Below, in pieces: positions 34,742 through 64,000 of a stretch of 64,000 nt of DNA (position 1 is the first letter of the stretch; every line of letters starts with the position of its first letter). This DNA is from Gemmatimonadota bacterium. Lineage in GTDB: Bacteria; Gemmatimonadota; Gemmatimonadetes; Longimicrobiales; Gaopeijiaceae. Location of the stretch: assembly GCA_034521595.1 (NCBI GenBank), contig JAXHMG010000003.1, forward strand, positions 3,039,006 through 3,103,005, written 5' to 3'. The translations under genes were made by a program, and so were the position numbers. The notes below the pieces were generated by a model. It searched no databases. It saw only the letters and a program-made list of their open reading frames with translations, and was not told where the DNA came from.

Positions 34742-35965
34742 TTGGCCCGCATCCTCGTCACCGACGGTGAGCAGCGCTCGAGCCTGGCGGCGGTCCGCTC
34801 GCTCGGCCGGGCCGGACACGAGGTGCTCGTGTGCTCGGCCCGGCGGCGTCCGTTGGCCGGCGCGTCGCGGTACGCACGGAGCGTGCACCGGGTGAGCGAT
34901 CCGCTCGAGGGGCCCGACGCGTTCCGAGGCGAGGTCGCGGCGGTCGTCGAGCAGGAGGGCGTCGACGTCCTGCTGCCGATGACCGACATCTCGGTGCCGC
35001 TCCTCCTCCCGCTCCGCGAGCGCATCCCCGGGCTCCTGCTCCCGTTCCCCGAGGCGTCGGTCTACGAAGGGATCTCCGACAAGCGCAACCTGATGGAGGT
35101 CGCGGGCGCCGCCGGCGTGCCGGTGCCGCGGCAGATGGTGGTGGAGACCCGGGAGGCGGGCGCGTCGATGGGGCCCGAAGCACCGTTCGAGCCCCACACG
35201 CCCGTCGTGCTCAAGCCCGCCCGGTCCGCCGTGGTGCGTGCCGGCGGCGTCCAGCGCTTCGGCGTGCGCATGCTCGACCGCGCCGGCGACCTGGAGGCCG
35301 CGCTACGCGGGTTCCCGGACGAGGCGTTCCCCGTGCTCGTCCAGGAGCGGATCACCGGACCCGGGCTGGGCGCGTTCGTGCTCGCGGAAGGCGGGCGCAC
35401 GCTCGCGACCTTCGGACACCGGCGCATCCGCGAGAAGCCGCCCACGGGCGGCGTGAGCGTCTACCGGGAAGCCGTCCCCCTCCGCGCTGACGTCCGCGCG
35501 CACGCCGAGACGATCCTGGAGGCCTTCGGATGGACCGGCGTGGCGATGGTCGAGTTCAAGGAGGACGCCGCCACCGGCACGCCCTACCTCATGGAGGTGA
35601 ACGGCCGCTTCTGGGGCTCGCTCCAGCTCGCCGTCGATGCCGGGGTGGACTTCCCGAGGATGCTGGTGGAGCTGGCGCTGGAGGAGGGCGGGGCCTCCGA
35701 GGGGCCGGGCGGGCAGGCGGCGGAGCCCCGCTCGGGCGTCCGCAGCCGCTGGCTCTGGGGCGACGTGGACCACCTGCTCTGGATCCTGCTCCGTGGACGC
35801 AAGGCGCGCGTCGCGCATCCCACGCTGCCCACGTCCCTCCAGGCGCTCGGCCGCTTCCTCGTGCCGTGGCGGCCCGGCGACCGGTTCGAGGTCCTGCGCC
35901 TCTCCGATCCCGGTCCGTTCCTGCGGGAGTCGGTGCAGTGGGTCGGGGGGGTGTTGGGGCGGTGA
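34742..35965 (+). CDS. ATP-grasp domain ligase (EPS-locus associated)
   Basis: ILVTDG..AAVRSLGRAG, PVVLKP, VLVQERITG, RIREKPPTGGVS, VAMVEFK, LMEVNGRFWGSLQLA. Confidence 0.88.
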   Translation: MARILVTDGEQRSSLAAVRSLGRAGHEVLVCSARRRPLAGASRYARSVHRVSDPLEGPDAFRGEVAAVVEQEGVDVLLPMTDISVPLLLPLRERIPGLLLPFPEASVYEGISDKRNLMEVAGAAGVPVPRQMVVETREAGASMGPEAPFEPHTPVVLKPARSAVVRAGGVQRFGVRMLDRAGDLEAALRGFPDEAFPVLVQERITGPGLGAFVLAEGGRTLATFGHRRIREKPPTGGVSVYREAVPLRADVRAHAETILEAFGWTGVAMVEFKEDAATGTPYLMEVNGRFWGSLQLAVDAGVDFPRMLVELALEEGGASEGPGGQAAEPRSGVRSRWLWGDVDHLLWILLRGRKARVAHPTLPTSLQALGRFLVPWRPGDRFEVLRLSDPGPFLRESVQWVGGVLGR

Positions 35966-36018
35966 AGTGGCTCAGCTAGCCCTCCAGCGGTCGTGCGCCC
36001 TCCTCTGCACGACGCACG

Positions 36019-36044
36019 GCATCAAATGGTGTATATTATGATGC
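36019..36044. promoter_or_regulatory. Inverted repeat over -10 box, likely vapBC operator
   Basis: GCATCA-N14-TGATGC enclosing TATATTAT upstream of vapB. Confidence 0.5.
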
Positions 36045-36071
36045 ACACGAGGCTTGCAGAGGAGATCCGAC

Positions 36072-36270
36072 ATGCGCACCACCATTAACCTGGATGAGGA
36101 CCTCCTGCAGGAGGCGCAGAGGCTCTCGGGCACCGAGGGGCGTACCGCGTTGATTCGGGAAGGCCTCAAGGCGCTCATCGAGCGAGAGTCGGCGCGTCGG
36201 CTGGCGAGGCTTGGTGGAAGTGATCCGGACCTCGGACGTACCGCCGCGCCGGAGGCCGTCGCCCCGGTGA
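36072..36270 (+). CDS. vapB: VapB-type antitoxin (1-nt frameshift near 36234)
   Basis: MRTTINLDEDLL..ALIREGLKALIERESARRLARLGGSDPDL; removing one G gives DVPPRRRPSPR* overlapping the next ATG. Confidence 0.8.
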
Positions 36271-36410
36271 TGCTGGTGGATACGTCGATGTACACCTGCT
36301 TGCGTCGACTGCGTTCAGCGGGTGACCTGGCGCCTGTGGAGCCGGGTCGGCCGTCTAGCGGAGGTTGCGTCGGAGTTGGGGCTCGCCTTCGACCGTCCAG
36401 GAGGGATGAA
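36270..36410 (+). pseudogene. vapC: vapC PIN toxin with most of the gene internally deleted
   Basis: Starts MLVDTS; overlapping frames read GYVDVHLLAST and LWSRVGRLAEVASELGLAF, the PIN C-terminus. Confidence 0.7.
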
Positions 36411-36422: not shown

Positions 36423-36520
36423 CAGCGCCCGCGCCACCTCTTCCACGCACCGCTCGATCCGCTCGGACGTGGGTCGAACTCCTGGCGCGGCTTGCCGCCG
36501 CCGAACCTCCGGCGCCCGGC
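36423..36520 (-). pseudogene. Remnant of LMW-PTP 3' end
   Basis: 39 bp identical to 53438-53476 and similar to 53512; encodes GKPR.EFD..RIERCVEEVARAL. Confidence 0.75.
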
Positions 36521-37129
36521 CCTTGATGCAAGACGCTCGCCTCAGCGAAGACAGCTTCGGGTTCCGCTCATTTGCTGGGCGTCGTCGAGTCTGGATGACA
36601 CCCACCCACCTTGCACCCTTCCTCCTGGCGAGCGGCCTGCAGTAGGAGGCCGATCTGGAGGTCAACGCCGGCGCATCAGGGTCATCGAGCCGGGGGAAGA
36701 GCTCGATCCGGAGCCTTGGGCTCGGCTCGAGGTGTACGCCGAGGGTGAGGTTGGTTTGATGGGCATCGACGTTCGGAGACTGATCTCGAGCGGCATGCCG
36801 GTCAACGACGCTCTGTTCACCATCGATCATGGTCCGCCTCCTGCGGGGAGGTGCTCGTCTCAGACGTTCACGGACGGATGCGGCTCGTACGCGCGGCGCC
36901 TGACGGCACTTTGTGGGTCGGAACGAGCAACGAGGATGGTCGGGGCGAGCCTCGCCCGGCGGAGACGTTATGTTGCGCCTTCATCCGCCCCCCGACGTGA
37001 GCGAACCTTAGCGCTGGCCTGAACGCTCGGTCCGCTATTTGCGACTTCAAGGATTGACGGCGCCTCGTTTCGTCGAGCGTTTCCGGTGTTCCCCAGAATT
37101 CGATCGCCACTGCTAGCAGGTCATTGTCG

Positions 37130-40100
37130 ATGAACCCCACCGCCTCGAGCGCACCCGCGCTCACGTCCATGCAATTGGGCATGCTCTACCACCATCTGGT
37201 GGACGGAGGCCCGGGGGCTCGATATCCTCCAGCTCGTCGTGGAGCTGCCTCACCGAGGTCGATTCGGAGCGGCTCCGCCGGGCCTGGCAGGTCGTGATCG
37301 ACCGACACGAGATGCTGCGCGCGAGCGTGGAGCGGGATGGCCGTAACCAGGCCTCCTGGAAGATCCACGAGACGGCTCCCCTTCCGTTCGAGATGCTCGA
37401 CTGGGAGGCAACGGCCGAGCACGAAGTCGAGGCGCGCTTCGAGTCATTCCTGCAAGATGACCGGGCGCGGGGCTTTCGACTCGATGATCCGCCGCTCACC
37501 CGTGTGACGCTCATGCGTTTGGCCGACGATCGATACCGGTGCGTTGCGACCGTGCCGCATATCGTTCTGGATGCCGGATCTTTCGTGCGTGTGCTCGACG
37601 AGGTGTTGCGTGTCTACGACGCCGAAGGCGTCCCGGACCTACCGCCGGCCCGCTCCTACACGACCTATCTCGACTGGCGCGCGAATCACGACGTGGAGGG
37701 CGCGGAAGCGTTCTGGAAGGACCTTCTACAGGGGTACCGCACGCCGATCGACGTGTCGGCCGGCGGGACCGAGGACGGCGGGACCCTCGAGATCTCTCGT
37801 GAGCTGCCGGAGGGCGTGACACGCCGCCTGACGGAGTTGGCGGAGCCCACGGGCGTGCGGTTGAGCGCCACCGTGCTCGCGGCCTGGTCGATGGTCCTCG
37901 CGAAGCTGGCTGGAGAGGACGACGTGGTCTTCGGGCAGACCCGCTCCGGGCGCCCGGGCACGGTCGAGGGCGCCGACGAGATGGTCGGCCTCTTCATCAA
38001 CACCGTTCCGACCCGGGCTCGACCTGCCGCCCGGCGTCCGCTCCGCGAGCTGCTCACCGAGATCCGTGAGCAGCAGGTCGGTGCTCCGGCCGTACGAGCA
38101 CACACCGCTGCCCGACATCCAGGCGTGGTGCGATCTCCCGCGGAATACCCCGCTCTTCCAGAGCATCGTCGTCTTCGACCGGGAGACGCTCGGCAGCCGC
38201 GTACGGGCGCTCGGAGGAGCATGGAGCGGCCGGGACGCTCACCTGCGCGAGAGGTTGGGGTCCGATCTGACGGTGCATGTGTACGGGGAGGATCCGATGC
38301 AGGTCGTGGCGGTCGCCGATGAGCGGAAGTTTGGAGCCGAGCGGGTTCGTACGATGCTCGATGCGCTCGAGGCCGTTCTCCACCAGATGGCAGAGCGCCC
38401 GGACGCGACGGTGGGCGATGACTCCCTGCTCCCTGCCGAACGTCGTGAGGAGGTCCTTCGAAGCTGGAACGCCACCGAGCACCCGCTGCCTCCCGCCAGG
38501 CGACCGTCCATGGACAGTTCCGGGAGCGCGCGGCGAAGGCCGCGGGGCGCCCGGCGCTTCGGGAAGGTGCCGTCCGCCTCACGTATGAGGAGCTCGATGG
38601 GCGCTCCAACAGCCTCGCCCGCCACCTGGTCGGCCTCGGTGTCGAGCCCGGAACGGTGGTGGGCTTGGTCGCCGAGCGCTCGGTAGACACGATCGTCGGG
38701 ATGCTCGGGATTCTGAAGGCGGGAGGGGCATATGTGCCTATCGACCCCTCGTTCCCGCAGGACCGAGTGGCGTTCATGATGGAGGACTCAGGGGTCGAGA
38801 TCCTGCTGTCGCCCCGGGCGCGGTTGGCGGACCTGCCGGAGCACGGCGCGCGAATCGTCCACCTCGATGGGGACGGACGGGCCTTCCGGGAAGACGACGC
38901 GGCGATCGACGCCAGGGGCGGACCCGAGGATCTGGCCTACGTGATGTACACGTCGGGCTCCACGGGTCGGCCGAAAGGGGTCGCGGTGGAACACCGCAAC
39001 GTCACCGCCTTCTTCACGGCAATGGATCAGCATCTCGGCACGGACCCGGGTGTCTGGTTGTCGGTCACCACGCTGTCCTTCGACATCTCCGTGCTCGAGT
39101 TGCTCTGGACGCTCACCCGCGGCTTCGAGGTCGTGCTGTACGACGACGAAAGATCCGTGCGACCCTCGGTGCCCGCCGGCGCTGCTTCACCCGCGACTAC
39201 CGAGTCGGCGGCGAAGCGCCATCGACTTCAGCCTCTTCGTACTTTTCCCGCCGACGGAGGCGCGGATCCCGACCGCAGGTACGAGCTCCTCATGGAAGGA
39301 GCGCGCTTCGCGGACCGGCATGGACTCAAGGCCGTATGGACGCCCGAGCGCCACTTCCACGCGTTCGGCGGCCTGTACCCGAATCCCGCGGTGACGGGAG
39401 CGGCCGTGGCGGCGGTCACCAGCCAGGTCGAGATCCGCTCCGGCAGCGTGGTGCTGCCGCTCCACCATCCGGCACGGGTGGCCGAGGAGTGGGGCGTGGT
39501 GGACAACATCTCGGGCGGCCGGGTCGGCGTCTCCTTTGCGTCCGGATGGCAGTCGGACGACTTCTGCCTCCGGCCGGACAACTACGAGAACCGGAAGGAG
39601 TACCTCTACGAGGCCATCGACACGGTGCGCCGGCTCTGGCGGGGCGAGACCCTCAGCTTTCCCGGCCCGAAGGGCGATGTCGAGGTGCGGACCCTCCCCA
39701 GGCCGGTGCAGGACGAGCTTTCCGGTCTGGGCGAGCCACGGCTGGCAGCGTCGACTCCTTCGAGTCGGCCGGCCGAGCGGGGGCGAACCTCCTGACGCAC
39801 CTGCTCGGACAATCGGTGGACGAGGTCACCGAGAAGATTCAGGTGTACCGCAATGCGCGCCGCGAGGCCGGCCACGAAGGGCCGGGCGTGGTGTCCGTCA
39901 TGCTCCACACTTTCGTGGGTGAGGACGACGATGCGGTGCGCGAGCGTGTGCGGGAGCCCATGAAGGCCTACCTGAGGACGGCCGTGGGCCTCATGAAGAA
40001 CTTCCAGCAGGCGTGGGAGATCTACCGCGACCGGTCGCGGCACAAGGATCGGGCCGAGGGCGGATTCGAGAGCCTGTCCGAGGAAGACATGGACTCGCTT

Positions 40101-41523
40101 CTGGATTTCGCGTTCGAGCGGTACTACGAGACGAGCGGGCTCTTCGGGTCAGCGGATCGGTGCCTGGAGCGAGTGGATCAGCTTCGGGAGGCGGGTGTCG
40201 ACGAGGTGGCATGCCTCATCGACTTCGGCGTCGATACGTCGACGACCCTCCAGCACCTCGATCAGCTCGCGCAGCTCCGGGACCGGGCGAAGCAGCAGGA
40301 AGTCGACGGGGAGGGCGGAGCCGCGGGGGCGCCGTTGAGCTTCGCCGATCAGGTTCGCCGTTACGGCGTGACGCACCTGCAGTCGACGCCCTCCCGCATG
40401 CGGATGTTCCTCGCGGAGCCGGAGGGTAGAGGGCGCTCGAGCGCATCGACACGTTGCTGGTTGGAGGAGAGGCCTTCCGGGTCCCATGGCCGAAGAGCTG
40501 CTGGGTGCCGTGAAGGGGTCGCGTGCTGAACGTCTATGGACCGACGGAGACGACGATCTGGTCTTCGCTTCGAGAGGTGTCTCCGGAGGACGCGCGCGAG
40601 GCGGTCGTGCCGATTGGCCGACCCTTGGCGAACACCAGGCTGTACGTGGTCGACGGGGACCTGAGCCCCGTGCCGCCCGGGGTGCCGGGAGAGCTGTTGA
40701 TCGGCGGAGCCGGCGTCGTGCGCGGATATCTGGACCGTCCCGACCTGACCGCCGGAGCGCTCCGTCCGGATCCCTTCCGCGAAGAGAGAGCGCCCGGGTG
40801 TGCCGCACCGGCGACCTCGTGCGGCAGCGAGCGGACGGGACAGTGGACTTTCTCGGAAGGATCGACCACCAGGTCAAGGTCCGGGGGCACAGGATCGAGC
40901 TCGGTGAGATCGATGCGGTGCTCGTCGGCCACCCCGACGTGGAAACTGCTGTGACCGTGGTCCGGGAGCATGGCCCGGGAGACCTCCGGCTCGTGGCGTA
41001 CTACGTATCCGCACGGAGCTCGAGCGAGCTCGAGCCCGAGCTTCGGGAGCGCATCGGGCGGTCCCTCCCCGAGGTGATGGTGCCGTCCACCATGGTGCGT
41101 CTCGACGAGATGCCCATGACGCCGAACGGCAAGATCGATCGCAAGGCCCTTCCCGAGCCCACGGCCGCAGGCCGTGCCAAGACCGTCACGGGTGCAGGTG
41201 CCACGCCCCGTAACGAGTTGGAACAACGGATCATCGACATTTGGAAGGAGGAGCTCGGCGTGGAGCGCCTGAGCATTGACGAGAACTTCTTCGATGCAGG
41301 GGGTCATTCCTCTGGCGGCGTGCAGGTTCGAGTCGCGCACTGCAGGACGCGCTCGGGCGGCGCATCCACTTCACCGACCTGTTCCGGTTTTCGACGGTCC
41401 GCGGCCTCGCCGACCACCTCGGAGACGGTGCGGAGGTGTCAGCGGCGGACAAGGGTGTCGACCGTGCGGAGATGAGGCGCCGGGCCGCGCCGGGGACGCA
41501 CGTCCACGGGGGGGTCGCGATGA
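37130..41523 (+). CDS. NRPS C-A(LLM monooxygenase)-PCP, multiple frameshifts
   Basis: C: MQLGMLY, RHEMLR, PHIVLDAG, MVGLFINTVP; A: LKAGGAYVPID, YTSGSTGRPKG, FDIS, NVYGPTETT, RTGDL, RIELGEI, NGKIDR; LLM: VWTPERHFHAFGGLYPNP; PCP: NFFDAGGHS. Confidence 0.88.
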
Positions 41524-44500
41524 CGAGGGCGGACGTTCCCGAGGGCGCCATCGCCATCGTCGGCATGGCGGGCCGGTTCCCCGGCGCGCAGGATGTCGAC
41601 GAGTTCTGGGAGAATATCCGCGAGGGACGTGAGAGCATCGCCCGCCTCTCGGAGGGAGAGCTGGAGGCCGCCGGCGTCAGCCGGTCCGCGCTCGACGACC
41701 CGCGCTATGTGAAGGCCGAAGCGGTCCTCGACCGGATGGAGTACCTCGACGCCGGCTTCTTCGGGATGAGTCCGAAGGATGCGGCGATCATGGACCCCCA
41801 AGTCCGGCACATCCTCGAGTGTGCGTGGCACGCCATGGAGCATGCCGGACACACGCCCGAACGCTTCGGCGGAAGCATCGGTGTCTTCGCCGGGTGTGGG
41901 GTGAGCTCGTACTTCTGGCCGAAACGTCCTCGCCAACGACGAGCTCCGGGACTCCGTGGGGTTCTTTCTCCTTCGGCATACGGGGAACGACAAGGATTTC
42001 CTTTCCACCCGGATCTCCTACAAGCTCAATCTGACCGGACCCAGCGTCGGCGTGCAGACGGCATGCTCGACTTCGCTCGTCGCCCGTACACTACGCCTGC
42101 CAGAGCCTCCTGAGCTGGGAGTGCGACATGGCGCTCGCGGGGGGCGTGACGATCAATCAGCCCCACGGCCGGGGCTACGTCTCACCAGGGAGGGGGAGAT
42201 CCTCTCTCCGGACGGGCACTGCCGTTCCTTCGACCACCGTGCTGAAGGGACGGTCTTCGGGAGTGGTGCCGGCGTCGTCGTGCTCCGACGTCTCGAGGAG
42301 CGCGATCGAGGACGGGGACACCATCCATGCGGTGATTCGTGGCTCCGCGGGTGAACAACGATGGCTCGGGGAAGGTGAGCTACCTCGCGCCCAGCGTGGA
42401 CGGACAGGCGAAGGCCATCGCGGAGGCCGTCTCGGTGGCCGGAGTCGACGCGGAGACCATTGGTCTCGTCGAAGGCCACGGGACCGCGACGCCCATCGGT
42501 GATCCCATCGAGGTGGCGGCGCTGACGCAGGCGTTCGGTACGCAAACAGACCAGGCGGAGTACTGCGCCCTCGGCTCGGTGAAGTCGAATGTCGGGCACC
42601 TCGACACCGCGGCGGGCGTCGCGAGCCTCATCAAGGCGGTCCAGGCGATCAAGCACGGCGAGGTGCCGCCCACCGTGCACTTCGAGGCGCCGAATCCACA
42701 GATCGACCTCCCTTCGACGCCGTTCTTCATCAACGACCAGACCATCCCTTGGCCCTCGGTCGGGGAGAAGCGAAGGGCGGGCGTGCCTTCGCTCGGCGTG
42801 GGCGGCACGAACGCGCACGTCATTGTCGAGGAAGCGCCCGCACCGCGGCCGTCGGGACAGGGGACGGAGCTGGCATCTCCTGCCCATCTCGGGCCGTTCG
42901 AGAGGCGTGCTCGAGGCCGCCTCCCGCAACCTCGTGGAGCATCTCGAGACCCACTCCGACGTCTCGCTTGCCGACATCTCGTACACCCTCCGTCGCGGAC
43001 GACGCGAGTTCGACCATCGGCGTGCGGTGGTATGCGCATCGCCGGATGAGGCCATCGAGGTGCTGGCCACCGGCCAGGGCGAGCGCCTCGTGGAGGGGGT
43101 GGCCAAGGCGAAGGGCAGGGAGGTGGCGTTCCTGTTCGCGGGGGTGGTGCGCAGTACCCGGAAATGGGTCGCGCGCTATACAGAGCGAGCCGGTGTACCG
43201 GGAAGCGGTCGACCGCCTGCTCGGCTCGTTCGAGCGCGATGCGGACTTCGATCTACGATCCCTTCTGTTCCCCGAGGCGGGCTCCGAGGAGGAGGCCGAC
43301 CGGTTGCTTCAGCGGCCGTCTCGCGCGCTTCCTGCGCTCTTCATCACCCAGTACGCGCAAGCTCGGCTCTGGATGTCCTCGGGTATCGAACCCGTCTCGA
43401 TGATCGGGCACTCCATGGGTGAGTACACGGCCGCCTGCTCGCCGGGGTGTTCGCTCCCGAAGAGGCGCTCTCGCTGGTGAGTCTCCGGGAAGGCTGTCGA
43501 GACGCTGCCTCCGGGTGCGATGACGGGTGTGAACGTGGCCGTCGAAGACGTGGACGTACCTCGGTGACGCGCTCTCGATCGCCGCGGTGGATGCTCCCGA
43601 GCTGACGTTGGTGGCCGGCCCGGTCGAGGCCGTGGAAGCGCTCGAAGCGCGACTCCAGGAGCGGGAGATCGACTTCCGCCGGGTCCATATCGACGTCGCC
43701 GCGCATTCGTCCATGCTCGATCCCATCCTGGAAGAGTTCGGGGCGCATGTCGGGCGGATGAAGCTGTCGGAGCCCGAGCGGCCCTTCATCTCGAACCTCT
43801 CGGGTGCGCCGGTGCAGCCTGGCGAAGTCGCACCGACCCGGACTACTGGGTTCGTCACCTCCGAGCAGAGCCGTGCGCTTCTCTTCAGGCCTGTCCTCCC
43901 TCCTGGGTTCGGAGGCCCGGTGCTCCTCGAAGTGGGCCCCGGACGCACCCTGGCGACGATGGCCAAGCTGCATCCGGATCGCTCGCCGGAGCAGCCCATC
44001 GTTCACTCGTTGCCCCGATCCGGACGAGATGGCCGACGCCCAGGCGTTCATGCTCACGGCCCTGGGCGGCCTGTGGGTAGAAGGCGTGGAGCCGGATTGG
44101 GACACGTTCGATGAAGGCTTCGCCAATCGGCGGGTCCCCCTCCCGGGGTACCCGTTCGAGCGGGAGCCGTATTTCATCGATGCACCGGTGAGCGAGGAGC
44201 GACCTGGCGCGGACGTGGATACGGAGGATGCGGCGCCCGGGTCGGACCGGGAGGACGACGTATCCCGTTGGTTCCACCGGCGCTCATGGAAGAAGGTCTC
44301 CCCGGCGAGCGCTCGCGACATGGCGCGAGAGCGGGTTCTGCTGCTGGCCGACGACGGGGGAAGGGCGCGGCCATCGGTGCCGAGCTCGAAGCCCGTGGCT
44401 GTGAGGTGGTCCGCGTGCGAGCGGGCCGAGACGTTCCGCGAGCTCGAAGAGGGTCAGGGCTATGCGCTGTCCCCGGGCGCGCTACAGGACTGGAAAGAGC

Positions 44501-48660: not shown

Positions 48661-48865
48661 GTGGGATCGCTCGCCGAGCGTGAGCCGGAGATGGCGCGCC
48701 GGAGCAAGGCGGTGCTGGAGGAAGGGTACCGGTACGACGCCAGCCTCTTCCCGGTGACGCAGCATCCGACGTACGGATATCCCGACGCTCCGCCCGATCC
48801 TCATCCTGCCCTACGGACTCGTGCGGTCGGGCCTACGCCAGGCCGAGCGGCGCGGCGCTCCCGGC
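48661..48865 (+). pseudogene. Remnant of polysaccharide deacetylase, paralogous to 58128..58967
   Basis: LAEREPEM / RRSKAVLE / EGYRYDASLFPVTQHPTYGYPDA / LPYGLVRSGLRQA blocks joined with intervening parts missing. Confidence 0.75.
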
Positions 48866-50932: not shown

Positions 50933-50943
50933 GCATGAAGGGG

Positions 50944-53365: not shown

Positions 53366-53428
53366 AGTGGCATCCACGAGCGCGCCGTAGTTCCCGTCAT
53401 TCGGCTACCGGTGTACTGCCTCGACACC

Positions 53429-53980: not shown

Positions 53981-54159
53981 GGCGGTTATTGTATAGAGGT
54001 TAGAGGAAATGGGGTACTCGGGCCTCGCTTAGGCTTCAGCTTCCGAAGTCCCCCCCCCGGCGCACGTTGAGGGATCCGTTCTCGACCCATCACCATTTTC
54101 TGACCACCGCACGGCGGACCCCGGCAGGACCGCCCGATCCCCTCAAAGGATGCTCCTTC

Positions 54160-56313: not shown

Positions 56314-57713
56314 TTCTCTCTCCCCCGCTGGGCCATCCAGTCGTTCCGGACCAACCGAAGCTTGCCCGACGGCGCACGCTCCACTTCATCGACCCGCCGC
56401 ACATCGGCCCGCATCCCCTCGAGTCGATCCGCCACGAACCGCTGCACCGTCTGCTCGAGCTCCTCCGAGGAGTCGGTGCTTCTGCGACGAGACGGATTTC
56501 GAGGCCGGTCGGCGTGGGTCTGCACAATCTGGAATTGGTCGAACCCCCCCGACCTCCCGGTGGAGATCCGCGAGGAGATACTTGGCGCGGGTACCATGCC
56601 AACGGCGTCCCGCTGGCGTTTCGATCATGTCGTATACCCCGGCCCCGAACCTTCTCCAGCGTGGGCCGCGGACGACCGCAGGGGCAGCGTTCCGGGCCTG
56701 CCGTGGCGGAGTCCCGGATGCGGTAGCGAATCGAGGGGCATGGAGAGGTTGTTGAGGTCGGTGACGACCACCTCCCCGTCCTCGCCGGGTCCGACCCGGC
56801 GACCGTCCTCGCCCAGGATCTCCACGAAGACGCTCTCCGAACATCACATGGAGGAGTCCCTCCTCGCAGGAGTAGGCGATGGCTCCGGTTTCGCCGCAGC
56901 CATATTCGGTCTGGACCAGGCGCGCCGAACACCTCGACGAGGCGCTTGCGCGTTGGCGTTCGTCCAGGGGCACCTGGCCAGTACACACGATGGATTCGCA
57001 GGCCCAGAGCCGTTCCGTCGATGCCTTCTGCGGACAGAAACTCCGCGAATAGATCGAGGAACGACGTGTAGCCATACAGCCAGCGGGGCTGGAAGCGTCG
57101 GCACTGGTTCCAATACCGTCGCAGATCTTCCGGCTCGAGATTAACGAATGCGCTGAAACGGATGCGTCGCAGTCCGCGAGATTCGACATTGAGGAGCGCA
57201 ACCTTCCCTTTCGCGTGAGCGGGGTGCCCCAGAATTGGCCGACCCGGACTGGCCGGGCTCGACGCCGAACCATCCGATACGCTGAGCCAGGAGACAGCGC
57301 GCTCCCATCGACAGGCCCTTCGCGTCTTTCGGACTTCTGCCGGCTCTGCGGGTGGATCCGCCGGTTCGGCTTCGCTGAGGTGCGTCCTGGAGCGGTCGTT
57401 CGAAGCTGGTCAGCGTGGTGCTGCCAGCGCGCGCTTCTTCGAGGAGCGGCAGGGTGGAGAGCCGTTCGATGGGGGTCTCCTTCGGATGCACCCATCTCCT
57501 CCCAGATATCACGGTAGAGCGGCGGCGCACGCTCCGCCTGTTTCCGGGAGCTCGCGGGAGCGCGTCCGCTGGCGCTCCCCTCAGGTTCTCCGGCGAGGCG
57601 GTCACCTCGAAGCTCCCTGAGCTGCGCGGAGGCGCTGGAGCACTCCAGTCTCACCGCGCCATGCAAGTGCGGCCCTGATAGACGGTTCTGGCGTAAAGGC
57701 TGTTCAGCGACAT
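56310..57713 (-). pseudogene. Phenylacetate-CoA ligase/CapK-like adenylate-forming enzyme, frameshifted
   Basis: TGGST, EYGCGETGAIAYSC, GEVVVTDLNNLSMP, IRYRI, PSGKLRLV. Confidence 0.72.
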
Positions 57714-58127
57714 CCACACCTTCCTGGTCCAGGCCACGGTCTCAACGACCCGCTCCCGGAGCATTCCTCTGCGGCTCCGCTCGCCGAGGAGGACGGTAGT
57801 GGTGGCCTCGGGGCCTGGGAAGGGGGAAGGTTCGGCGGCAGCGCCAGAAGGGTGGTGAGGAGAGGCGCTCCAGCGCTGAGTCTATCTGCGGAGCCGGTCG
57901 CATCGAACAGTCGGATCAGCAGACTGTCGCGTAACCTAGCGGATGACCGGCGCAACCTATACGATGGACGTCCGAATCGGTTTGACAACGCCCACCACGT
58001 GATCGAGACTCGGCTCAGCGACCACCCCCCCTGCTTCTTCGCGGGCAGGGTGCGAGCCCGGTACCTGCAAGGGTATCGGGCTCAGCTTTTTTCGCCCTCG
58101 CGATGGGTCAGGGGAGGAGGGTAGGCC

Positions 58128-58967
58128 ATGACCGCACACCACTTCACCGTCGACGTCGAGGAGTACTTCCACCCCACGGCGCTCGCACCGCATTACCCCA
58201 TGGACATCTGGGACGGCCTCGAGCGGCGCTCGCCCGGGGTGATCGACCGGCTGCTGGAGTTCCTCGAGGACCGGGACGTGCTCGGGACCTTCTTCGTCGT
58301 CGGGTGGCTGGCCGAGCGCGAGCCGGAGATGGTGAAGCGGATCGCGCGGGCCGGGCACGAGGTCGCCTCGCACAGTTGGGAGCACGAGCTCGTGGGCCGG
58401 CTCGGACCTGACGGGTTCCGCGACTCGCTGCGGCGGAGCAAGGACGTGCTGGAGACGCTGAGCGGCGCGCCCGTGCTGGGCTACCGCGCGCCGAGCTTCT
58501 CGATCGTGCCGGGGCTCGAGTGGGCGTTCGACGTGCTGCTCGAAGAGGGCTACCGCTACGACGCGAGCCTCTTCCCGGTCTCGCAGCACCCCACGTACGG
58601 CTATCCGGACGCCGAGCCCGATCCCTACTGGGTGGAGCGGCCGTCCGGGCGGCTGGCGGAGTTCCCGGCCACGACGGCCCGCCTTCTGGGCCAGACGCTG
58701 CCGGCGTCGGGGGGCGCATACTTCCGGGTGCTCCCGTACGGGCTCGTCCGCCGGGGGCTCCGGCAGGCCGGCGCACGCCGCGCTCCGGGCATGTTCTACA
58801 TCCACCCCTGGGAGATGGACGACTGGGTGCCCGACGTGGACGCGCCCCGGCTCCAGATGGTGCGCACGTTCGCCGGACGCAGGCGCACGTGGCGCCGCCT
58901 CGACCGGATGTTCGGGGACTTCGCGTTCAGGCCGATCCGGACGACGTTGGAGGAGATGCCCGGGTAG
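58128..58967 (+). CDS. XrtA/PEP-CTERM system polysaccharide deacetylase (DUF3473)
   Basis: FTVDVEEYF, TFFVVGW, HEVASHS, GYRAPSFS, GGAYFR, YIHPWE. Confidence 0.9.
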   Translation: MTAHHFTVDVEEYFHPTALAPHYPMDIWDGLERRSPGVIDRLLEFLEDRDVLGTFFVVGWLAEREPEMVKRIARAGHEVASHSWEHELVGRLGPDGFRDSLRRSKDVLETLSGAPVLGYRAPSFSIVPGLEWAFDVLLEEGYRYDASLFPVSQHPTYGYPDAEPDPYWVERPSGRLAEFPATTARLLGQTLPASGGAYFRVLPYGLVRRGLRQAGARRAPGMFYIHPWEMDDWVPDVDAPRLQMVRTFAGRRRTWRRLDRMFGDFAFRPIRTTLEEMPG

Positions 58968-60240: not shown

Positions 60241-61353
60241 TTGGAGACGCGCGGAACCCGATGGACCATCCTCAAGCGCGGGAGCACTACGATCCACGCC
60301 TCGGCCCCTTCGAGCAACGGCGACCCCTCGCTCTCCGTCACGCCCTTCAGCGGATCGGCCGCCGAATGGGACGCGGTCGTCGGGACGTTGGAGGGGAGCA
60401 CGTTCTGCCACCTGGCCGGATGGCGCCCCGTCATGGAGGACGCGCTGGGCCACGAAGCCTGGTGGTGGTCGGCGGTGGACGAGGCGGGCGCCTGCCACGG
60501 GGTCTTGCCGCTCGTGCGGGTGAAGAGCCTGCTGTTCGGCGACTACCTGCTCTCGATGCCGTTCCTGAGCTACGGAGGACCGATCGGCTCCGAAGCAGCG
60601 CGCGGCGCGCTGGCCGAGCACGCCGTGGCGGAGGCCGGGCGTCTGGGCGTCGACCTGCTCGAGCTGCGCGACCGGCGCCCCGTCCCCGGCGAGCTCGCCA
60701 CCTCGGAGCGCAAGATCACCGTGCTCAAGGCGCTTCCGGACTCGACCGACGCGCTCTGGGAGGACGGGCTCAAGGCGAAGGTCCGCAGCCAGGTGCGCAA
60801 GCCCATGAAGGAGGGGCTCGAGGCCCGGACCGGCCCGGACTTCGTCGACGCCTTCTACGACATCTTCGCCGTCACCATGCGCGACCTGGGCACGCCGGTG
60901 CTGCCCAAGCGGTTCTTCGAGGCCCTCGGCGAGCACCTCGGCGAGCACCTGATCTACTGCGTCGTGGAGCACGAGGGCACGCCCGTCGCGGCCGGCTGCG
61001 GGTTCCTGTGGAACGGCGAGTTCGAGATCACCTGGGCGGGCGCGCTCCGCGAATACAACCGCATGGCGCCGAACATGCTGCTCTACTGGGCGCTGATGGA
61101 GGAGTCGGTCCGGAGGGGGGCGGACACGTTCAACTTCGGGCGCTGCACGCCGGGCTCCGGGACGCACCGGTTCAAGAAGCAGTGGGGCACGGAGGACCAT
61201 CCGTTGCCGTGGGCCCAGTGGTCGCCCGACGGCGTCGCGGCCACCCCGAACCCCGAGAGCGCCAAGTTCCGGCTGGCCACGCAGGTGTGGCAGAAGCTCC
61301 CGGTCGGGGTGACGAACGCGGTGGGGCCGGTGCTGGCGCGGTCCCTGCCGTGA
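60241..61353 (+). CDS. FemAB-family XrtA/PEP-CTERM system-associated protein (GNAT); start uncertain
   Basis: GVLPL..SLLFG..SMPFLSYGG, LELR, MRDLGTP, PNMLLYW, FNFGR, FKKQWG. Confidence 0.85.
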   Translation: METRGTRWTILKRGSTTIHASAPSSNGDPSLSVTPFSGSAAEWDAVVGTLEGSTFCHLAGWRPVMEDALGHEAWWWSAVDEAGACHGVLPLVRVKSLLFGDYLLSMPFLSYGGPIGSEAARGALAEHAVAEAGRLGVDLLELRDRRPVPGELATSERKITVLKALPDSTDALWEDGLKAKVRSQVRKPMKEGLEARTGPDFVDAFYDIFAVTMRDLGTPVLPKRFFEALGEHLGEHLIYCVVEHEGTPVAAGCGFLWNGEFEITWAGALREYNRMAPNMLLYWALMEESVRRGADTFNFGRCTPGSGTHRFKKQWGTEDHPLPWAQWSPDGVAATPNPESAKFRLATQVWQKLPVGVTNAVGPVLARSLP

Positions 61354-62558
61354 TCCGCAGGCAGCTCCCGGCGTACTCGCCGGTGCTCCCTTCGCGGCTG
61401 GTGGGCGCCGTGCCTCGATGCGCTCCGCTCACCCGCACGGACCCGTCTGTCCTATCTCTCGAGCAGCACCTCCTCGAGCGCTACGCCGCGGACCGGGCCG
61501 TCCTCACCGGGAGCGGCACCCAGGCGCTCCAGCTCGCGCTCGAGCGGTGCAAGCGCGCGCTCGGCGACGACGTGGTCGTCGCGCTGCCCGCCTACTCCTG
61601 CTACGACCTGGTCACCGCCGCGGTCGGCGCGGAGGTGCGGGTGACGTTCTACGACATCGACCCCGTGAGCCTCGCGCCCGACGAGGAGAGCCTCCGGGAG
61701 GCGCTCGCTGCCGGGGCCGGAGTGGTCGTGGCGGGCAACCTGTACGGCTTCCCGTTGGACTGGGACGCGCTGCGCGCGGTGTGCGACCCCCAGGGGGTGA
61801 TCGTGGTGGAGGACGCGGCCCAGGGGCTCGGCAGCCGGTGGAAGGACAAGGAGGCGGGCGGGCTCGGTGACCTGTCCGTCCTGTCCTTCGGACGCGGGAA
61901 AGGGTGGAACGGGGGCGGGGGCGGAGCGTTGCTGGTGCGGGACGGCGGGCGGCCCGCCCCGGAGCCCGAAGTCTCGGAGGCCGCCCCGGCCACCGCCGGG
62001 CTCGAGGCGGTCGTCCTGTCCCTGGCCATGTGGGCCCTCGGCCGTCCGGAGCTCTACCGCCTTCCTTCGCTGATCCCGGGGCTCGAGCTGGGGGCGACGG
62101 TCTACCACGAGCCGGAGCCGGTGCAGGCGATGCATCCGGTTTCGGCGGCGATCGCCCGCCGGCATGCCGGGCCTTCCCGGGATGCGGGTGCGGTCCGTGC
62201 GGCCTGGGCCGAGCGCTGGCACGGCGCGGTCGCGGGCGGGGAGGGCGGCGGTCGTGCGCTCACGCCGTGCGTCCCGCTCGCCGGCGGCGCTTCCGGCTGG
62301 CTCCGCTGTCCGGTGCTCGCGTCGAGCGCGGAGGCGAGGGAGGAGCGGGTGGCGGAAGCCGGGGACATGGGCGCCGCACGGGGCTATCCCACGGCTCTGC
62401 CGCGGCTGCCGCAGGCCGCCGCGCTGCACGCGTCGGGCCGTACGGCCGTTCCCGGTGCCGAGCGACTCGCCGCCACCCTGCTCACGCTCCCCACCCACCC
62501 GCGCGTCTCGGACGCGGATCTGGAGGCGTTCGCCTCCGTGGCGGCCAAGGCGTCATGA
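61350..62558 (+). CDS. DegT/DnrJ/EryC1/StrS-family PLP protein (sugar aminotransferase-like)
   Basis: SGTQALQLAL, VALPAYSC, VEDAAQG, LSFGRGKG..GGGG, LLTLPTHP. Confidence 0.82.
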   Translation: MIRRQLPAYSPVLPSRLVGAVPRCAPLTRTDPSVLSLEQHLLERYAADRAVLTGSGTQALQLALERCKRALGDDVVVALPAYSCYDLVTAAVGAEVRVTFYDIDPVSLAPDEESLREALAAGAGVVVAGNLYGFPLDWDALRAVCDPQGVIVVEDAAQGLGSRWKDKEAGGLGDLSVLSFGRGKGWNGGGGGALLVRDGGRPAPEPEVSEAAPATAGLEAVVLSLAMWALGRPELYRLPSLIPGLELGATVYHEPEPVQAMHPVSAAIARRHAGPSRDAGAVRAAWAERWHGAVAGGEGGGRALTPCVPLAGGASGWLRCPVLASSAEAREERVAEAGDMGAARGYPTALPRLPQAAALHASGRTAVPGAERLAATLLTLPTHPRVSDADLEAFASVAAKAS

Positions 62559-64000
62559 GCCCGCGCATGTGGGTCGGCGTGTCCCTGGGGGCGGTGCTCG
62601 CCGCGCTGTGGCCCACGCTCCTGAGCTTCCACGACGTGTGGACGAGCTATACCTACTCGCACGGCTACCTGGTCGCCGGGCTCTCGGCCTGGCTCCTGTG
62701 GCGGGCTCGGGCGAGGCTGTGGGAAGGGGACGCGGGGCGGAACCTCGCCCTCCCGATCCTCCTCGCCCTCGGTCTGCTGTGGCTCGCCGCCACGGTCATG
62801 CAGCTCCGCGTCGTGCACCAGGGCGTGCTGCCGCTCGCCGTCGCGGCGTGGGCGCTCGGGGTCGCGGGCCCGCCGGGGTTCCGGGCGGTGCTCCCCGCCA
62901 CCTCGCTCTTCCTGTTCGCCGTCCCGTTCTGGGAGGTCTTCATCGGGCCGCTCCAGCAGCTCACGATCCTGGTGAGCGGCAACGTGGTCCGGCTGTTCGG
63001 GATCCAGGCCGAGATCTCGGGCGAGCTCGTCCGCATCCCCAGCGGGACGTTCGAAGTCGCCGGCACGTGCGCGGGGCTGAACTTCTTCATCGTCGGCACC
63101 TTTCTCGGCACGGCGTACGCCTACCTCTTCCTGAATCGCTGGCGCTCCCGGCTGGCGATGGTCGCGCTCGCCGCCGCGACCGCGGTGGTCGCGAACTGGG
63201 TCCGGGTGACCGGACTGGTGGTCATCGGGCACGTCACCGAGATGACGCACGATCTCCTCCAGAGCCACCAGACGTACGGTTGGGTGATCTTCTCGGTCGC
63301 CTTCGTGCTGCTCTTCTGGCTCATGAGAGGCCTCGAGCGGCGTGACCGGAAGCGGGGCCAGGGGGACGACCTCGTGCGTGCCCGGCCCGGACCGTTGCCC
63401 GAGGAAGGCGTGGTGCGCCGCCGCGCGCTCCTGGCGTGCGGCGCGCTGTTGGTGGGCCCGCTCATCTACTTCGTGGTGGGGGCCCTGCCCGCCCGAGCCG
63501 GCGCGTCACCCGCTCCGGAAGCCACGGAGGCCATGGACCCGTGGCGCGTCGCTCCGTCCGACGCCCGGCCGTTCGACTGGCGGCCCGAGTTCGGGGGCGC
63601 GGGCGTCGAGCACGCCTGGGTCTGGACGAACGGGACGGTCGAGATCTACCACGACCGCCTGGTCTATCCCGAGCAGCGGCAGGGCGCGGAGCTGATCGGA
63701 GGCCCCAACCGGATCGCCGAGGCTTCGGCCATCGCGGCCGAGCGGCCGACCTGGCTGCGCGACCTCGACCGCACGGTCCGCGAAGCCCTGATCATGACCC
63801 CCGAGGGGCCGGTGCTGGTCTGGTACTGGTACCGCGTCGGCGGCGTCGAGACGGTGTCACCGGCCTGGGCCAAGCTGCTCGAGCTCTGGGGGTTCGTCCG
63901 GCGGAGGCCGGTCGCCGAGCTCGAGGCGCTCAGCGTGGCGTGCGGGACGGATGGGTGCGAGGAGGACGCTGCGGCGTTGCGGGAGTTGATGGAAGTGGGG
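62555..64000 (+). CDS. Exosortase (XrtA-like) fused to EpsI domain, runs off window end
   Basis: Manual translation from ATG 62555 (not in ORF track): YSHGYLV, FEVAGTCAGL (Cys), ANWVRV (Arg), SHQTYGW (His), then QRQGAELIG and VWYWYRVGG. Confidence 0.88.
   Translation, partial: MSPRMWVGVSLGAVLAALWPTLLSFHDVWTSYTYSHGYLVAGLSAWLLWRARARLWEGDAGRNLALPILLALGLLWLAATVMQLRVVHQGVLPLAVAAWALGVAGPPGFRAVLPATSLFLFAVPFWEVFIGPLQQLTILVSGNVVRLFGIQAEISGELVRIPSGTFEVAGTCAGLNFFIVGTFLGTAYAYLFLNRWRSRLAMVALAAATAVVANWVRVTGLVVIGHVTEMTHDLLQSHQTYGWVIFSVAFVLLFWLMRGLERRDRKRGQGDDLVRARPGPLPEEGVVRRRALLACGALLVGPLIYFVVGALPARAGASPAPEATEAMDPWRVAPSDARPFDWRPEFGGAGVEHAWVWTNGTVEIYHDRLVYPEQRQGAELIGGPNRIAEASAIAAERPTWLRDLDRTVREALIMTPEGPVLVWYWYRVGGVETVSPAWAKLLELWGFVRRRPVAELEALSVACGTDGCEEDAAALRELMEVG

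Follow-up and report, generated by a model that had tools for sequence, protein, structure and literature searches.

The window analysed here, a stretch of 64,000 nucleotides from a Gemmatimonadota bacterium, contains a copy of a conserved NRPS-PKS cassette that lacks a thioesterase, and in which a pair of hydrolase-fold proteins would hand the product to an acceptor of a polysaccharide pathway. We give this reading a probability of roughly one half. As judged from sequence comparison, NRPS-PKS-hydrolase 2-hydrolase 1 is a conserved cassette, undescribed and uncharacterised, at five Gemmatimonadota loci, and transfer of its product to a glycan is plausible.

The NRPS gene (37130-41523, plus strand) encodes the domains C-A-PCP, with an LLM monooxygenase embedded in the A domain. 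The Pfam domains are Condensation, AMP-binding split by Bac_luciferase, AMP-binding_C and PP-binding, and the protein is a member of TIGR04020 (253.5 bits, cut-off 244.45). An intact orthologue of 1461 aa aligns colinearly with it across 37130-41520, with identity at 1118 of 1449 aligned positions. The PKS gene (41520-47353, plus strand) encodes KS-AT-KR-DH-vestigial A subdomain-PCP, with KS, AT, KR, DH and carrier domains matched in Pfam, and over 41520-47350 shares 1405 of 1921 aligned residues with the 1944-aa PKS of the closest related locus, L001. The DH domain and the vestigial A subdomain ahead of the carrier were absent from the list of the original prediction; among the 120 PKS relatives listed, about 78 extend over the DH-A subdomain-PCP end. 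A scan of 126 + 143 frames at E ≤ 1e-4 gave no thioesterase (PF00975), in agreement with the one-module NRPS and one-module PKS without thioesterase that had been proposed. ATGA overlaps at 41520-41523, 47350-47353 and 48117-48120 translationally couple NRPS, PKS, hydrolase 2 and hydrolase 1 in turn, as predicted, and the expected absence of an exporter is borne out by a profile scan of the frames in 36-58 kb, in which no transporter family was matched.

Using a residue numbering that we take to be applicable, the A-domain code is DIL(Q)LGVIWK and the domain reads as glycine-type, consistent with the glycine-derived unit put forward originally. The known MOX modules of the myxothiazol/melithiazol type are terminal and cleave glycine to leave an amide, whereas the module in the window is the first and feeds a PKS. 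The likeness to these MOX-bearing Gly A domains lies in the insertion of the LLM between motifs A4 and A5, the match to TIGR04020 and a comparable code, DILQLGMIWK being quoted for four monooxygenase-bearing Gly A domains in PMC12283262.

The PKS, hydrolase 2 and hydrolase 1 are found together in 5/5 related loci that are long enough to judge (L001-L005; hydrolase 2 of L005 is given by a tblastn span alone, and L006, at only 1.7 kb, was left uncounted), and the LLM-NRPS is also present in all four loci that extend upstream. The proposal that the NRPS-PKS and the hydrolases belong together as one unit is supported in the related Gemmatimonadota. As assembled, the NRPS and PKS genes of the window contain 39 frameshifts in 10.2 kb (14 and 25 respectively; 27 insertions and 12 deletions), and a further 14 are found in the second copy of the hydrolase pair. 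If these were real, the cluster would be a decaying one with no product in the source organism, and a truncated hydrolase 1, several gene fragments and an in-frame stop in the nearby CapA gene could be taken in the same way. Across 3370 aligned codons (73-77% identity), however, the NRPS and PKS show no in-frame stop. Insertions exceed deletions and few frameshifts fall at homopolymers (18% vs 8% in the control), a pattern of read errors rather than of decay. The catalytic motifs are kept and the KS matches its intact orthologue at up to 94 of 100 residues. It would seem most likely that the frameshifts are sequencing noise, and a pseudogene cluster appears very improbable.

Hydrolase 2 (copy A, 47350-48120, plus strand) is intact, with the motif GLRFG and without a nucleophile, and is identical to its L001 counterpart at 171 of 261 residues with no frameshift. 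Hydrolase 1 (copy A, 48117-48630, plus strand; GLCSG) is present for the first ~165 codons only, with two frameshifts there and a third at 48635. Its identity to the L001 protein is 80-90% per block over residues 1-160 and 85.5% over 1-165, then about 30%, similarity ending after about 48630; the His motif was searched for in this copy and not found. Further downstream on the plus strand lie hydrolase 2 copy B (51736-52544; GLRFG, eight frameshifts) and hydrolase 1 copy B (52517-53387; six frameshifts), which is full length compared with L001. The hydrolases had been regarded as markers of exosortase A loci. The adjacent arrangement and the GLR.G and GLC motifs are indeed those of the exosortase A hydrolases TIGR03100/TIGR03101, the families that NCBIfam ranks first for both proteins, in the window as at every related locus. 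Membership was nevertheless rejected, as the scores of 26-100 bits fall well short of the cut-offs, 168 and 203 (73.3 against 202.75 for hydrolase 2 copy A with TIGR03101), making the proteins relatives rather than members, and in the window the pair comes after an NRPS-PKS.

The two hydrolases are predicted to act as one unit, given their ATGA overlap, their occurrence as one fused protein in 10 of the 11 proteobacterial genera covered and a heterodimer model. In a 603-aa protein of Azospirillum the N-terminal half resembles hydrolase 2 (39%, E 4e-24) and the C-terminal half hydrolase 1 (35%, E 9e-24). Hydrolase 1 has a conserved His besides the Cys at the nucleophile elbow, and in 11/11 proteobacterial genera the elbow residue is Cys in the hydrolase 1 half and Arg or Gly in the hydrolase 2 half. 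Modelling of the L001 pair as a complex gave a score of 0.91 in each of three runs, with at least 85% of contacts shared between runs and a partner pLDDT of at least 81; the best of three controls scored 0.00. Among 157 solved complexes 116 attained 0.91, whereas only 2 of 215 mismatched pairs did so; this calibration is only rough, as our own alignments had 6 rows.

The structures nearest to both hydrolases are ordinary esterases and lipases, so that plain hydrolysis is equally compatible. The pair might then set the product free as a small molecule (a short N-acyl-glycine-derived enoyl acid or amide), and the EPS genes nearby would reflect either shared regulation that serves life on surfaces or in biofilms, or coincidence. 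MBL-fold thioesterases are known from fungal PKS pathways, and release could also fall to the MBL-fold protein encoded at 48984-50375 (plus strand). With 85% identity to its L001 counterpart this gene is conserved better than any other in the block, though it is present in only two of the six cassette copies, those of the window and L001. A nucleophile that is always Cys beside a partner that is always non-catalytic would be odd for a simple thioesterase, and the block has no exporter.

The genomic surroundings also bear on the choice between a glycan acceptor and a free product. EPS-type genes adjoin the cassette at three of the five Gemmatimonadota loci (L002, L004 and L005), as they do in the window. 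In a survey limited to plasmids and chromids, with one record per genus and no background control for EPS-gene frequency, they also neighbour the hydrolase pair in seven of 11 proteobacterial genera. A carrier protein with a loading enzyme adjoins the pair in five of the 11, two more being ambiguous. In Variovorax, the NRPS-PKS, PPTase, hydrolase 2 and hydrolase 1 genes immediately precede Wza/Wzc/glycosyltransferase genes of the same orientation, and such recurrence of the pair inside same-strand EPS operons of distant phyla argues against a free product. On the other hand, EPS genes were not found within 10 kb downstream at L001, where a second NRPS set is seen, nor in 10 kb at L003, and are missing at 4/11 proteobacterial loci; one proteobacterial locus shows only a GH2. 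Release as a free molecule is, in our view, a rather unlikely explanation. The linkage to exosortase genes that was also predicted was not supported: such genes occur in 0/5 Gemmatimonadota and 0/11 proteobacterial flanks (10-14 kb).

In the window itself most of the neighbours that had been listed were supported by family matches. Upstream is an intact ATP-grasp gene (34742-35962, plus strand; PF15632, GC3 0.94), which aligns without frameshift, at 271 of 399 identical residues, with the ATP-grasp located after hydrolase 1 at L001. Downstream are an intact LMW phosphotyrosine phosphatase gene (53432-54028, minus strand; PF01451, GC3 0.915), a family 2 glycosyltransferase split across two frames (54164-54764, plus), the CapA/PGA_cap gene (55553-56077, minus), interrupted by a stop at 55814-55816, an XrtA system polysaccharide deacetylase (58125-58967, plus; TIGR03006, 283.2 vs 276.2), a 370-aa FemAB family XrtA/PEP-CTERM-associated protein (60241-61353, plus; TIGR03019, 308 vs 260.35), a DegT-type aminotransferase (61374-62555, plus) and an exosortase A (XrtA) fused to an EpsI domain (62573-64000, plus, running off the window; TIGR03109, 208.1 vs 208, and TIGR02914). 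The PaaK-like gene is weaker: a possible adenylate-forming gene with approximate limits (56400-57409, minus) has one match, to NF045666 at 21.6 bits (E 1e-4). A PEP-CTERM protein with a C-terminal VPEP...RRR motif (29535-30338, minus; TIGR02595, 22.1, cut-off 16) is a candidate exosortase substrate. XrtA loci have companion ligase and decarboxylase families, which were not found in the window.

The adjacency of the cassette to these genes may be recent, secondary or artefactual, since the block differs from its flanks in composition and quality and has fragments at its left border and inside. GC3 is 0.75-0.85 in the block, matching the L001 cassette, vs 0.90-0.95 in the flanks, and the indel noise is confined to 36-58 kb and ends at the block borders; the ATP-grasp gene is free of frameshifts, and four ORFs in other parts of the window (731-1164 codons) are uninterrupted. 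At the left border are a VapB-like antitoxin remnant (36042-36320, plus; PF09957, E 1.4e-14, frame residues 11-56), for which no PIN partner was found, and a 75-bp stretch repeating the phosphatase gene's 3' end (36423-36496, 92% identical to 53438-53512 by self-blastn), a direct repeat that brackets 36.5-53.4 kb. Next comes a remnant of a glucose/sorbosone dehydrogenase gene, its final ~57-60 codons (36818-36997, plus; tblastn, 67% to residues 254-309 of the L001 protein, whose gene precedes the NRPS there). Inside the block are an 88-bp piece resembling the XrtA deacetylase gene (48713-48800, 83% identical to 58537-58624 by self-blastn), an inverted NRPS-type A subdomain-PCP fragment (50539-50931, minus; PP-binding on the minus strand, tblastn) and a second copy of the tail, DH piece-PCP-hydrolase 2-hydrolase 1, at 50929-53387 (79% identity). 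The latter opens with a DH piece and PCP without the A subdomain (50929-51736, plus), the DH piece being 96% identical to 46132-46485. The duplicated tail, the fragments and the deviant GC3 show that the window copy has been rearranged, inserted here or misassembled.

Were the whole of 36-58 kb wrongly joined in from a relative of lower GC and lower coverage, or a recently inserted island, the proximity to XrtA would be uninformative. The L001 genome would fit this, as its FemAB orthologue (78%) lies on a contig equal in length to that of L001 but is absent from the 10 kb that follow the cassette. A single insertion does not, however, explain the intact, high-GC3 phosphatase gene between two low-GC stretches, and the L005 cassette is likewise accompanied by ATP-grasp and LMW-PTP genes. 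Identity to the L001 genome is alike for the flanking FemAB gene and the cassette, and the tail copies differ mostly at third codon positions (93/244 vs 37/245 and 30/246), which indicates real diverged genes and not noise. We consider a non-biological or non-ancestral position of the block unlikely.

Several of the closest known systems are found in Proteobacteria. In Variovorax paradoxus VAI-C (CP063167.1) a hybrid NRPS-PKS, again with no thioesterase domain at E ≤ 1e-5, is followed by hydrolase 2 and hydrolase 1 (GMCSG) as two unfused genes, and an EPS export/synthesis operon comes immediately after. The modules there differ (A-PCP-KS-AT-ACP-aminotransferase, then C-A-PCP-C-PCP, without an LLM domain) and the hydrolase 1 is only 28% identical. 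EPS loci of Shinella and Roseateles combine a fused hydrolase, with Cys in one half and no nucleophile in the other, with an ACP, an AMP-binding enzyme that loads the carrier, a PLP enzyme and an ATP-grasp, among glycosyltransferase and flippase genes; in those loci the ligase is free-standing, the ACP small and condensation or ketosynthase chemistry absent. In Azospirillum and Mycetohabitans (ACP-ACAD-aa:[ACP] ligase-DUF1839-GH2-fused hydrolase) the same fused pair lies downstream of a carrier protein and adjoins a glycoside hydrolase, but the loader is tRNA-synthetase-like and not an NRPS, and no EPS synthesis operon was found within 12 kb. The Cupriavidus locus shares some of these genes and has an EPS synthesis operon. 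Ligases of this kind load the carrier protein with Gly or Ala, according to PMC9437257. Acyl-amino-acid chemistry encoded inside exosortase loci has a precedent mentioned in PMC4897644, reportedly a single GNAT-like enzyme using acyl-ACP and not an assembly line.

In the proposed scheme, the N-terminal C domain would acylate glycine on the PCP and the embedded monooxygenase would then oxidise the glycyl unit. The PKS would add one malonate, followed by reduction and dehydration, leaving the chain on the terminal PCP. The hydrolase heterodimer would move it onto the Cys of hydrolase 1 and from there to an acceptor, which may be a sugar, a lipid-linked repeat unit or the polymer, rather than simply to water; no acceptor-specific transferase was identified. 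By analogy, the sets of ACP, adenylating enzyme and fused hydrolase in proteobacterial EPS loci are simpler counterparts of this elaborate cassette. Since distant bacteria also have the hydrolase pair beside polysaccharide genes, the product of the cassette may decorate a sugar polymer.

All stop-to-stop frames of at least 70 codons between 34 and 64 kb of the window (126 on the plus strand and 143 on the minus strand, 269 in all) were searched against Pfam, and selected frames only against NCBIfam; the 64 kb have about 69% G+C and not a single N. An ATP-grasp gene (34742-35962, plus strand) is followed by a remnant of a VapB-type antitoxin, its N terminus (36042-36320, plus strand), for which no PIN-domain partner was found and which marks the left edge of a block of lower GC content. 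Next on the plus strand come an NRPS (37130-41523; Condensation, an AMP-binding domain into which a luciferase-like monooxygenase is inserted, AMP-binding_C and PP-binding), a PKS (41520-47353; KS, AT, KR, DH, a piece of AMP-binding_C and PP-binding) and two alpha/beta-hydrolase genes (copy A, 47350-48630), which among the NCBIfam families best match exosortase-A-associated hydrolase 2 and hydrolase 1. ATGA overlaps join these four genes, which we call the cassette, at all three junctions. An MBL-fold gene follows, then a second DH piece with PP-binding and a second hydrolase 2-hydrolase 1 pair (copy B, 51736-53387), all on the plus strand. Beyond this pair lie an LMW-PTP gene (minus strand), a GT2 gene spread over two frames, an interrupted PGA_cap gene (minus strand) and a DegT gene between the FemAB gene and the gene for exosortase A (XrtA), which is fused to EpsI and within which the window ends. 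No transporter family was found by Pfam on either strand of 36-58 kb, and the thioesterase family PF00975 had zero matches in the 269 frames at E <= 1e-4. The original prediction of an NRPS and a PKS with ATGA overlaps and XrtA neighbours, lacking both thioesterase and transporter, is thus borne out in part, in its gene content; its 'PaaK-like' gene is backed by one 21.6-bit match.

The protein most similar to the A-LLM fragment of the NRPS (1461 aa, 82% identical) is encoded on a Longimicrobiales MAG contig of 1,018,088 bp, referred to as L001, where the NRPS (1461 aa) and the PKS (1944 aa) are both intact. Frameshift-aware alignment of the L001 proteins to the window gave 1118 identical residues of 1449 aligned and 14 frameshifts for the NRPS, and 1405 of 1921 and 25 for the PKS, with zero in-frame stops in either. 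The ATP-grasp control and hydrolase 2 of copy A had no frameshift, the MBL gene had one, at its extreme end, and the copy B hydrolases had 8 and 6. Insertions outnumber deletions in the NRPS and PKS (27 vs 12), runs of at least four equal bases occur at 18% of frameshift sites vs 8% of control positions, and elsewhere in the window four open reading frames of 731-1164 codons are unbroken. Since many indels go with high identity, kept motifs and no nonsense codons, the frameshifts are probably read errors limited to this stretch and not signs of decaying genes. True pseudogene decay, which would have to account for 39 frameshifts without one in-frame stop, was set aside.

The same stretch looks rearranged. 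Self-comparison revealed repeats between 46132-46485 and 50941-51294 (96%) and between 46935-48624 and 51322-53034 (80%), as well as a 75-bp copy of the 3' end of the PTP gene at 36423-36496 and a deacetylase-like piece of 88 bp at 48713-48800. At 50539-50931 the window has an A subdomain-PCP fragment in inverted orientation, and just before the NRPS a glucose/sorbosone dehydrogenase gene, whole at that place in L001, is reduced to its final 57 codons. Over some 160 residues hydrolase 1 of copy A is 80-90% identical to its L001 counterpart when compared block by block (85.5% overall); identity then drops to about 30%, and the His motif of this copy was not found. The tail copies A and B differ mostly at third codon positions (93/244 vs 37/245 and 30/246 at the others), so they are real, diverged genes.

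GC3 is 0.84 in the NRPS and PKS, 0.78 in hydrolase 2 of copy A, 0.76 in the MBL gene and 0.75-0.79 in copy B, close to the L001 values (0.83, 0.85, 0.78 and 0.78), and it is 0.92-0.95 in the ATP-grasp, PTP, deacetylase, FemAB and XrtA genes. The idea that copy B is a native high-GC remnant and copy A the incomer was rejected, as the GC3 of copy B is like that of copy A. Together, the shifts in composition and quality set 36.0-53.4 kb and 54.1-58.1 kb apart from the flanks, and the block is either an island, or a region that was rearranged, or the product of a misjoin, so that the local arrangement in the window may be secondary or artefactual. A recent foreign origin of the block is countered by two observations: the flanking FemAB shares 78% identity with a protein apparently of the L001 genome, against 73-77% for the cassette, and in another related locus, L005, the cassette is likewise accompanied by ATP-grasp and PTP genes. 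Taken together with the relatives of FemAB and the NRPS, an operon resembling Alternative Complex III (8457-15974, plus strand; multihaem cytochrome, molybdopterin/FeS subunit, NrfD, ActD and cytochrome c) fits a Longimicrobiales-like Gemmatimonadota genome. A TIGR03545 family protein (22184-24376, minus strand; 168 bits vs a cut-off of 173) adjoins a DUF2062 protein (24383-24913, minus strand).

In the NRPS the Condensation, adenylation and peptidyl carrier domains are in the order of a module. The motifs PHIVLDAG, SGSTGRPK, FDISVL, NVYGPTE and PNGK are present in the window, and the serine motif of the PCP was seen in the orthologue only. The inserted monooxygenase belongs to the MupA/Atu3671 LLM family (TIGR04020), its first fragment alone scoring 253.5 bits vs a cut-off of 244.45 and a second frame 204.3. 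The code of the adenylation domain, whose positions we take to follow GrsA numbering, reads DIL(Q)LGVIWK at the recognisable positions in window and orthologue alike. The LLM-bearing glycine modules known from myxobacterial pathways are terminal and amide-forming; the window module resembles them but stands first. For four monooxygenase-carrying glycine domains DILQLGMIWK is given in a survey (PMC12283262), and assembly-line monooxygenases of the TIGR04020 type are described as alpha-hydroxylases or Baeyer-Villiger-type oxidases (PMC8739492). The A-LLM part is also 55-60% identical to a large family of formyltransferase-A(LLM)-PCP proteins of about 1550 aa (P0026-P0120 in the match list) from Methylibium, Rhizobacter, Piscinibacter, Caldimonas and others. 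A gene for an Sfp/PptT-type 4'-phosphopantetheinyl transferase 19 kb upstream (18066-18971, plus strand; PF17837 and PF01648, with the PptT model at 109.5 bits, under its cut-off) may code for the enzyme that activates the carrier domains.

The PKS has the KS, AT, KR, DH and PP-binding domains of a type I modular enzyme. GHSMGE, the Rossmann motif of the KR and the carrier motif GGHSL can be read in the window, and the KS motifs TACSTS, HGTAT and NIGH in the L001 orthologue, where the KS, AT, KR (with LDD) and DH motifs look functional. The L001 PKS has no thioesterase either, and the Pfam domains precomputed for the L001 NRPS (P0001) include none. In the L001 PKS the A subdomain is without the A10 lysine and the carrier motif is the NRPS-type GGHSL. 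Every PKS in the related loci ends in DH-AMP-binding_C-PP-binding, and about 78 of the 120 listed relatives of this end cover at least 88% of it; the taxa named among them are Longimicrobiales, Gemmatimonadales, Gemmatimonadaceae and Verrucomicrobiales. Relatives of 2960-2990 aa (P0169, P0190 and others) have a complete C-A-PCP module after the DH, so the vestigial A subdomain of the 1944-aa PKS looks like the remnant of an NRPS module. An origin of this end from an exosortase-associated ligase and ACP was unsupported, the top NCBIfam matches being NRPS families.

One scan of genome contigs gave six related Gemmatimonadota loci (L001-L006, of which L006 spans 1.7 kb only). The PKS, hydrolase 2 and hydrolase 1 occur together in all five loci long enough to judge, with hydrolase 2 of L005 seen as a tblastn span alone, and the C-A(LLM)-PCP NRPS in all four that reach upstream, L002 and L005 having an extra loading module. 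Downstream of hydrolase 1, L002 has genes for GSDH, GT2, a PgaB-like deacetylase, an asparagine synthase-like amidotransferase and GT4; L004 for a priming sugar transferase, a sigma-54 response regulator and a kinase; L005 for an amidotransferase, GDSL, ATP-grasp, LMW-PTP and GT4; and L003 unrelated genes. Exopolysaccharide (EPS)-type genes thus adjoin the cassette in 3/5 loci. L001 has an MBL gene between its two hydrolase genes, then an ATP-grasp gene and a convergent second NRPS set (15912-22004, minus strand; TubC-type docking domain-C-A-PCP and a further module) with a hydrolase 2/hydrolase 1 pair of its own, so that within one genome the pair serves synthases of more than one type.

The window does hold an exosortase A locus. 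XrtA (TIGR03109, 208.1 bits vs a cut-off of 208), the XrtA deacetylase (TIGR03006, 283.2 vs 276.2), the FemAB-type protein (TIGR03019, 308 vs 260.35) and a PEP-CTERM protein encoded at 29535-30338 on the minus strand (TIGR02595, 22.1 vs 16) all score above the cut-offs, making the XrtA core genes members of their NCBIfam families. Directly past the stop of the PEP-CTERM gene is a perfect 32-bp palindrome (29475-29506), probably a terminator. The order deacetylase-FemAB-DegT is the same as in the annotated locus on the D. vulgaris plasmid pDV; the export, chain-length, tyrosine kinase and ATPase genes that lie by the deacetylase in pDV were found nowhere in 1-58 kb, the window ending within XrtA. 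The pDV locus differs in being without hydrolase 1/2 genes, and none were found in the plasmid XrtA locus of Chelatococcus. No exosortase gene was found near the cassette in any of the five related loci, though the flanks stop 7.6-10 kb past hydrolase 1 and XrtA is 9.2 kb from the cassette in the window, so that this absence is weak evidence. In these flanks all XrtA-specific families scored under cut-off, and a pattern search of L001-L006 found no PEP-CTERM motifs. The linkage that had been expected to be conserved is kept for NRPS, PKS and hydrolases and in part for EPS genes, and within these short flanks it was not seen for exosortase.

The hydrolases had been named as markers of exosortase A loci, an assignment that fails on their scores. 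For hydr1_PEP (TIGR03100, cut-off 168.45) the window fragments reached 36.9 and 25.6 bits and intact relatives 65-91; for hydr2_PEP (TIGR03101, cut-off 202.75) the values were 73.3 and 56 in the window and 77-100 in relatives. By these profile scores they are relatives, not members, of the two families. Across the cassette copies the nucleophile elbow of hydrolase 2 is an invariant GLR(F/L/I)G, and hydrolase 1 has GLCSGAD and a conserved His. A thioesterase-like structure was sought for hydrolase 1 by PDB sequence search and by Foldseek with a model of pLDDT 72.9, and only generic esterases and lipases were returned (TM ~0.6). Modelled as a complex, hydrolase 2 and hydrolase 1 of L001 scored 0.91 in each of three runs and the best of three controls 0.00; this mark was attained by 116/157 solved complexes and 2/215 mismatched pairs, a calibration that is only roughly valid here, our own six-row alignments having been used. 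Contacts agree to at least 85% between runs, the partner pLDDT is at least 81, and the interface takes in hydrolase 1 residues 252-256, adjoining the conserved His251. The model supports binding of hydrolase 1 to hydrolase 2.

A tblastn search of a plasmid collection with L001 hydrolase 1 gave 54 records from 11 genera, of which we surveyed one per genus, the first listed or, for Azospirillum, a previously chosen record; four without a gene table were annotated by Pfam. In 10/11 genera the hydrolases are fused as a protein of about 600 residues. The Azospirillum fusion was checked explicitly (39% identity with hydrolase 2 for the N half and 35% with hydrolase 1 for the C half) and the others were confirmed by blastp or motifs. 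In all 11 genera the elbow residue is Cys in the hydrolase 1 part and Arg or Gly, never Ser or Cys, in the hydrolase 2 part. Seven (Variovorax, Rhizobium, Shinella, B. gladioli, Roseateles, Methylobacterium and Cupriavidus) have EPS synthesis genes no more than 12 kb away; in five (Azospirillum, Variovorax, Shinella, Roseateles and Mycetohabitans) the hydrolases are next to a carrier protein and its loading enzyme, and a further two are ambiguous. None of the 11 loci has an exosortase.

The settings vary. In Variovorax paradoxus VAI-C a hybrid NRPS-PKS (A-PCP-KS-AT-ACP-aminotransferase, then C-A-PCP-C-PCP), a PPTase, hydrolase 2 and hydrolase 1 are encoded directly 5' of genes for Wza, Wzc, a sugar transferase, a glycosyltransferase and a flippase, all on a single strand. 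The Shinella EPS locus has the fused hydrolase with an ACP, an AMP-binding enzyme, a PLP enzyme and a 'sugar-transfer associated' ATP-grasp. Azospirillum brasilense Sp7 (8272-15938 of locus L007) and Mycetohabitans rhizoxinica (4950-12948 of L016) share a set of ACP, acyl-CoA dehydrogenase-like gene, amino acid-[ACP] ligase, DUF1839, GH2 and fused hydrolase, for which no product was found in the literature searched; according to a review, amino acid-[ACP] ligases of that type load Gly or Ala onto carrier proteins (PMC9437257). In Caballeronia sp. NK8 (13287-14136 of L012) three hypothetical genes of 85 codons each stand in tandem after the fused hydrolase, with no EPS or carrier genes nearby.

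The original prediction had been an assembly line belonging to an EPS/exosortase locus. On gene neighbourhoods it is supported in part: comparisons across two phyla back its tie to glycan synthesis, and the tie to exosortase itself is not supported (0/5 and 0/11 loci in the flanks covered). In the mechanism we propose, an acyl or aminoacyl donor would be condensed onto PCP-bound glycine, the glycyl unit oxidised, and one malonate added, with reduction and dehydration to follow, leaving the chain held on the terminal PCP. In place of the missing thioesterase, hydrolase 1 would accept the chain on its Cys, and hydrolase 2 would be its partner without a catalytic role. The chain might simply go to water, and such plain hydrolysis is compatible with the esterase-like nearest structures and with those loci that lack EPS genes; the repeated placement of the pair inside EPS operons favours an acceptor within the EPS pathway. 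Transfer to such an acceptor leads to our boldest, tentative reading, with a probability of around 0.35: that the Cys-hydrolase/pseudo-hydrolase pair, whether two proteins or one, is an off-loading enzyme of wide occurrence that moves carrier-bound aminoacyl, acyl or NRPS-PKS chains onto exopolysaccharide precursors.

We know of no function assigned to exosortase-associated hydrolases 1 and 2. In the literature searched, which largely did not include subscription journals, there was no account of the cassette, of NRPS-PKS in exosortase loci, of the function of the hydrolase pair or of Gemmatimonadota NRPS/PKS-exopolysaccharide clusters. The words hydrolase, ligase, acyl carrier and FemAB are absent from the main text of Haft 2006 (PMC1569441), and in PMC4897644 acyl-amino-acid synthesis by N-acyl amino acid synthases is cited as linked to exosortase loci. 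The parts are familiar; what is undescribed is that they recur in combination, with a synthase lacking a thioesterase, or a simple loader, beside a Cys-hydrolase/pseudo-hydrolase pair in a polysaccharide locus.

The window copy, too noisy and rearranged as a test object, has its main value as the lead that exposed the pattern, and cultured, non-pathogenic carriers of the pair exist in Variovorax paradoxus VAI-C, Shinella and Azospirillum brasilense Sp7. Should the pair indeed pass carrier-bound chains on to sugars, it would join assembly-line natural products with exopolysaccharide synthesis, usually separate fields. Exosortase-associated hydrolases 1 and 2 would gain a role, and gene families that mark exosortase and EPS loci without explanation a function; Gemmatimonadota, Variovorax and others would make exopolysaccharides decorated by assembly-line products.
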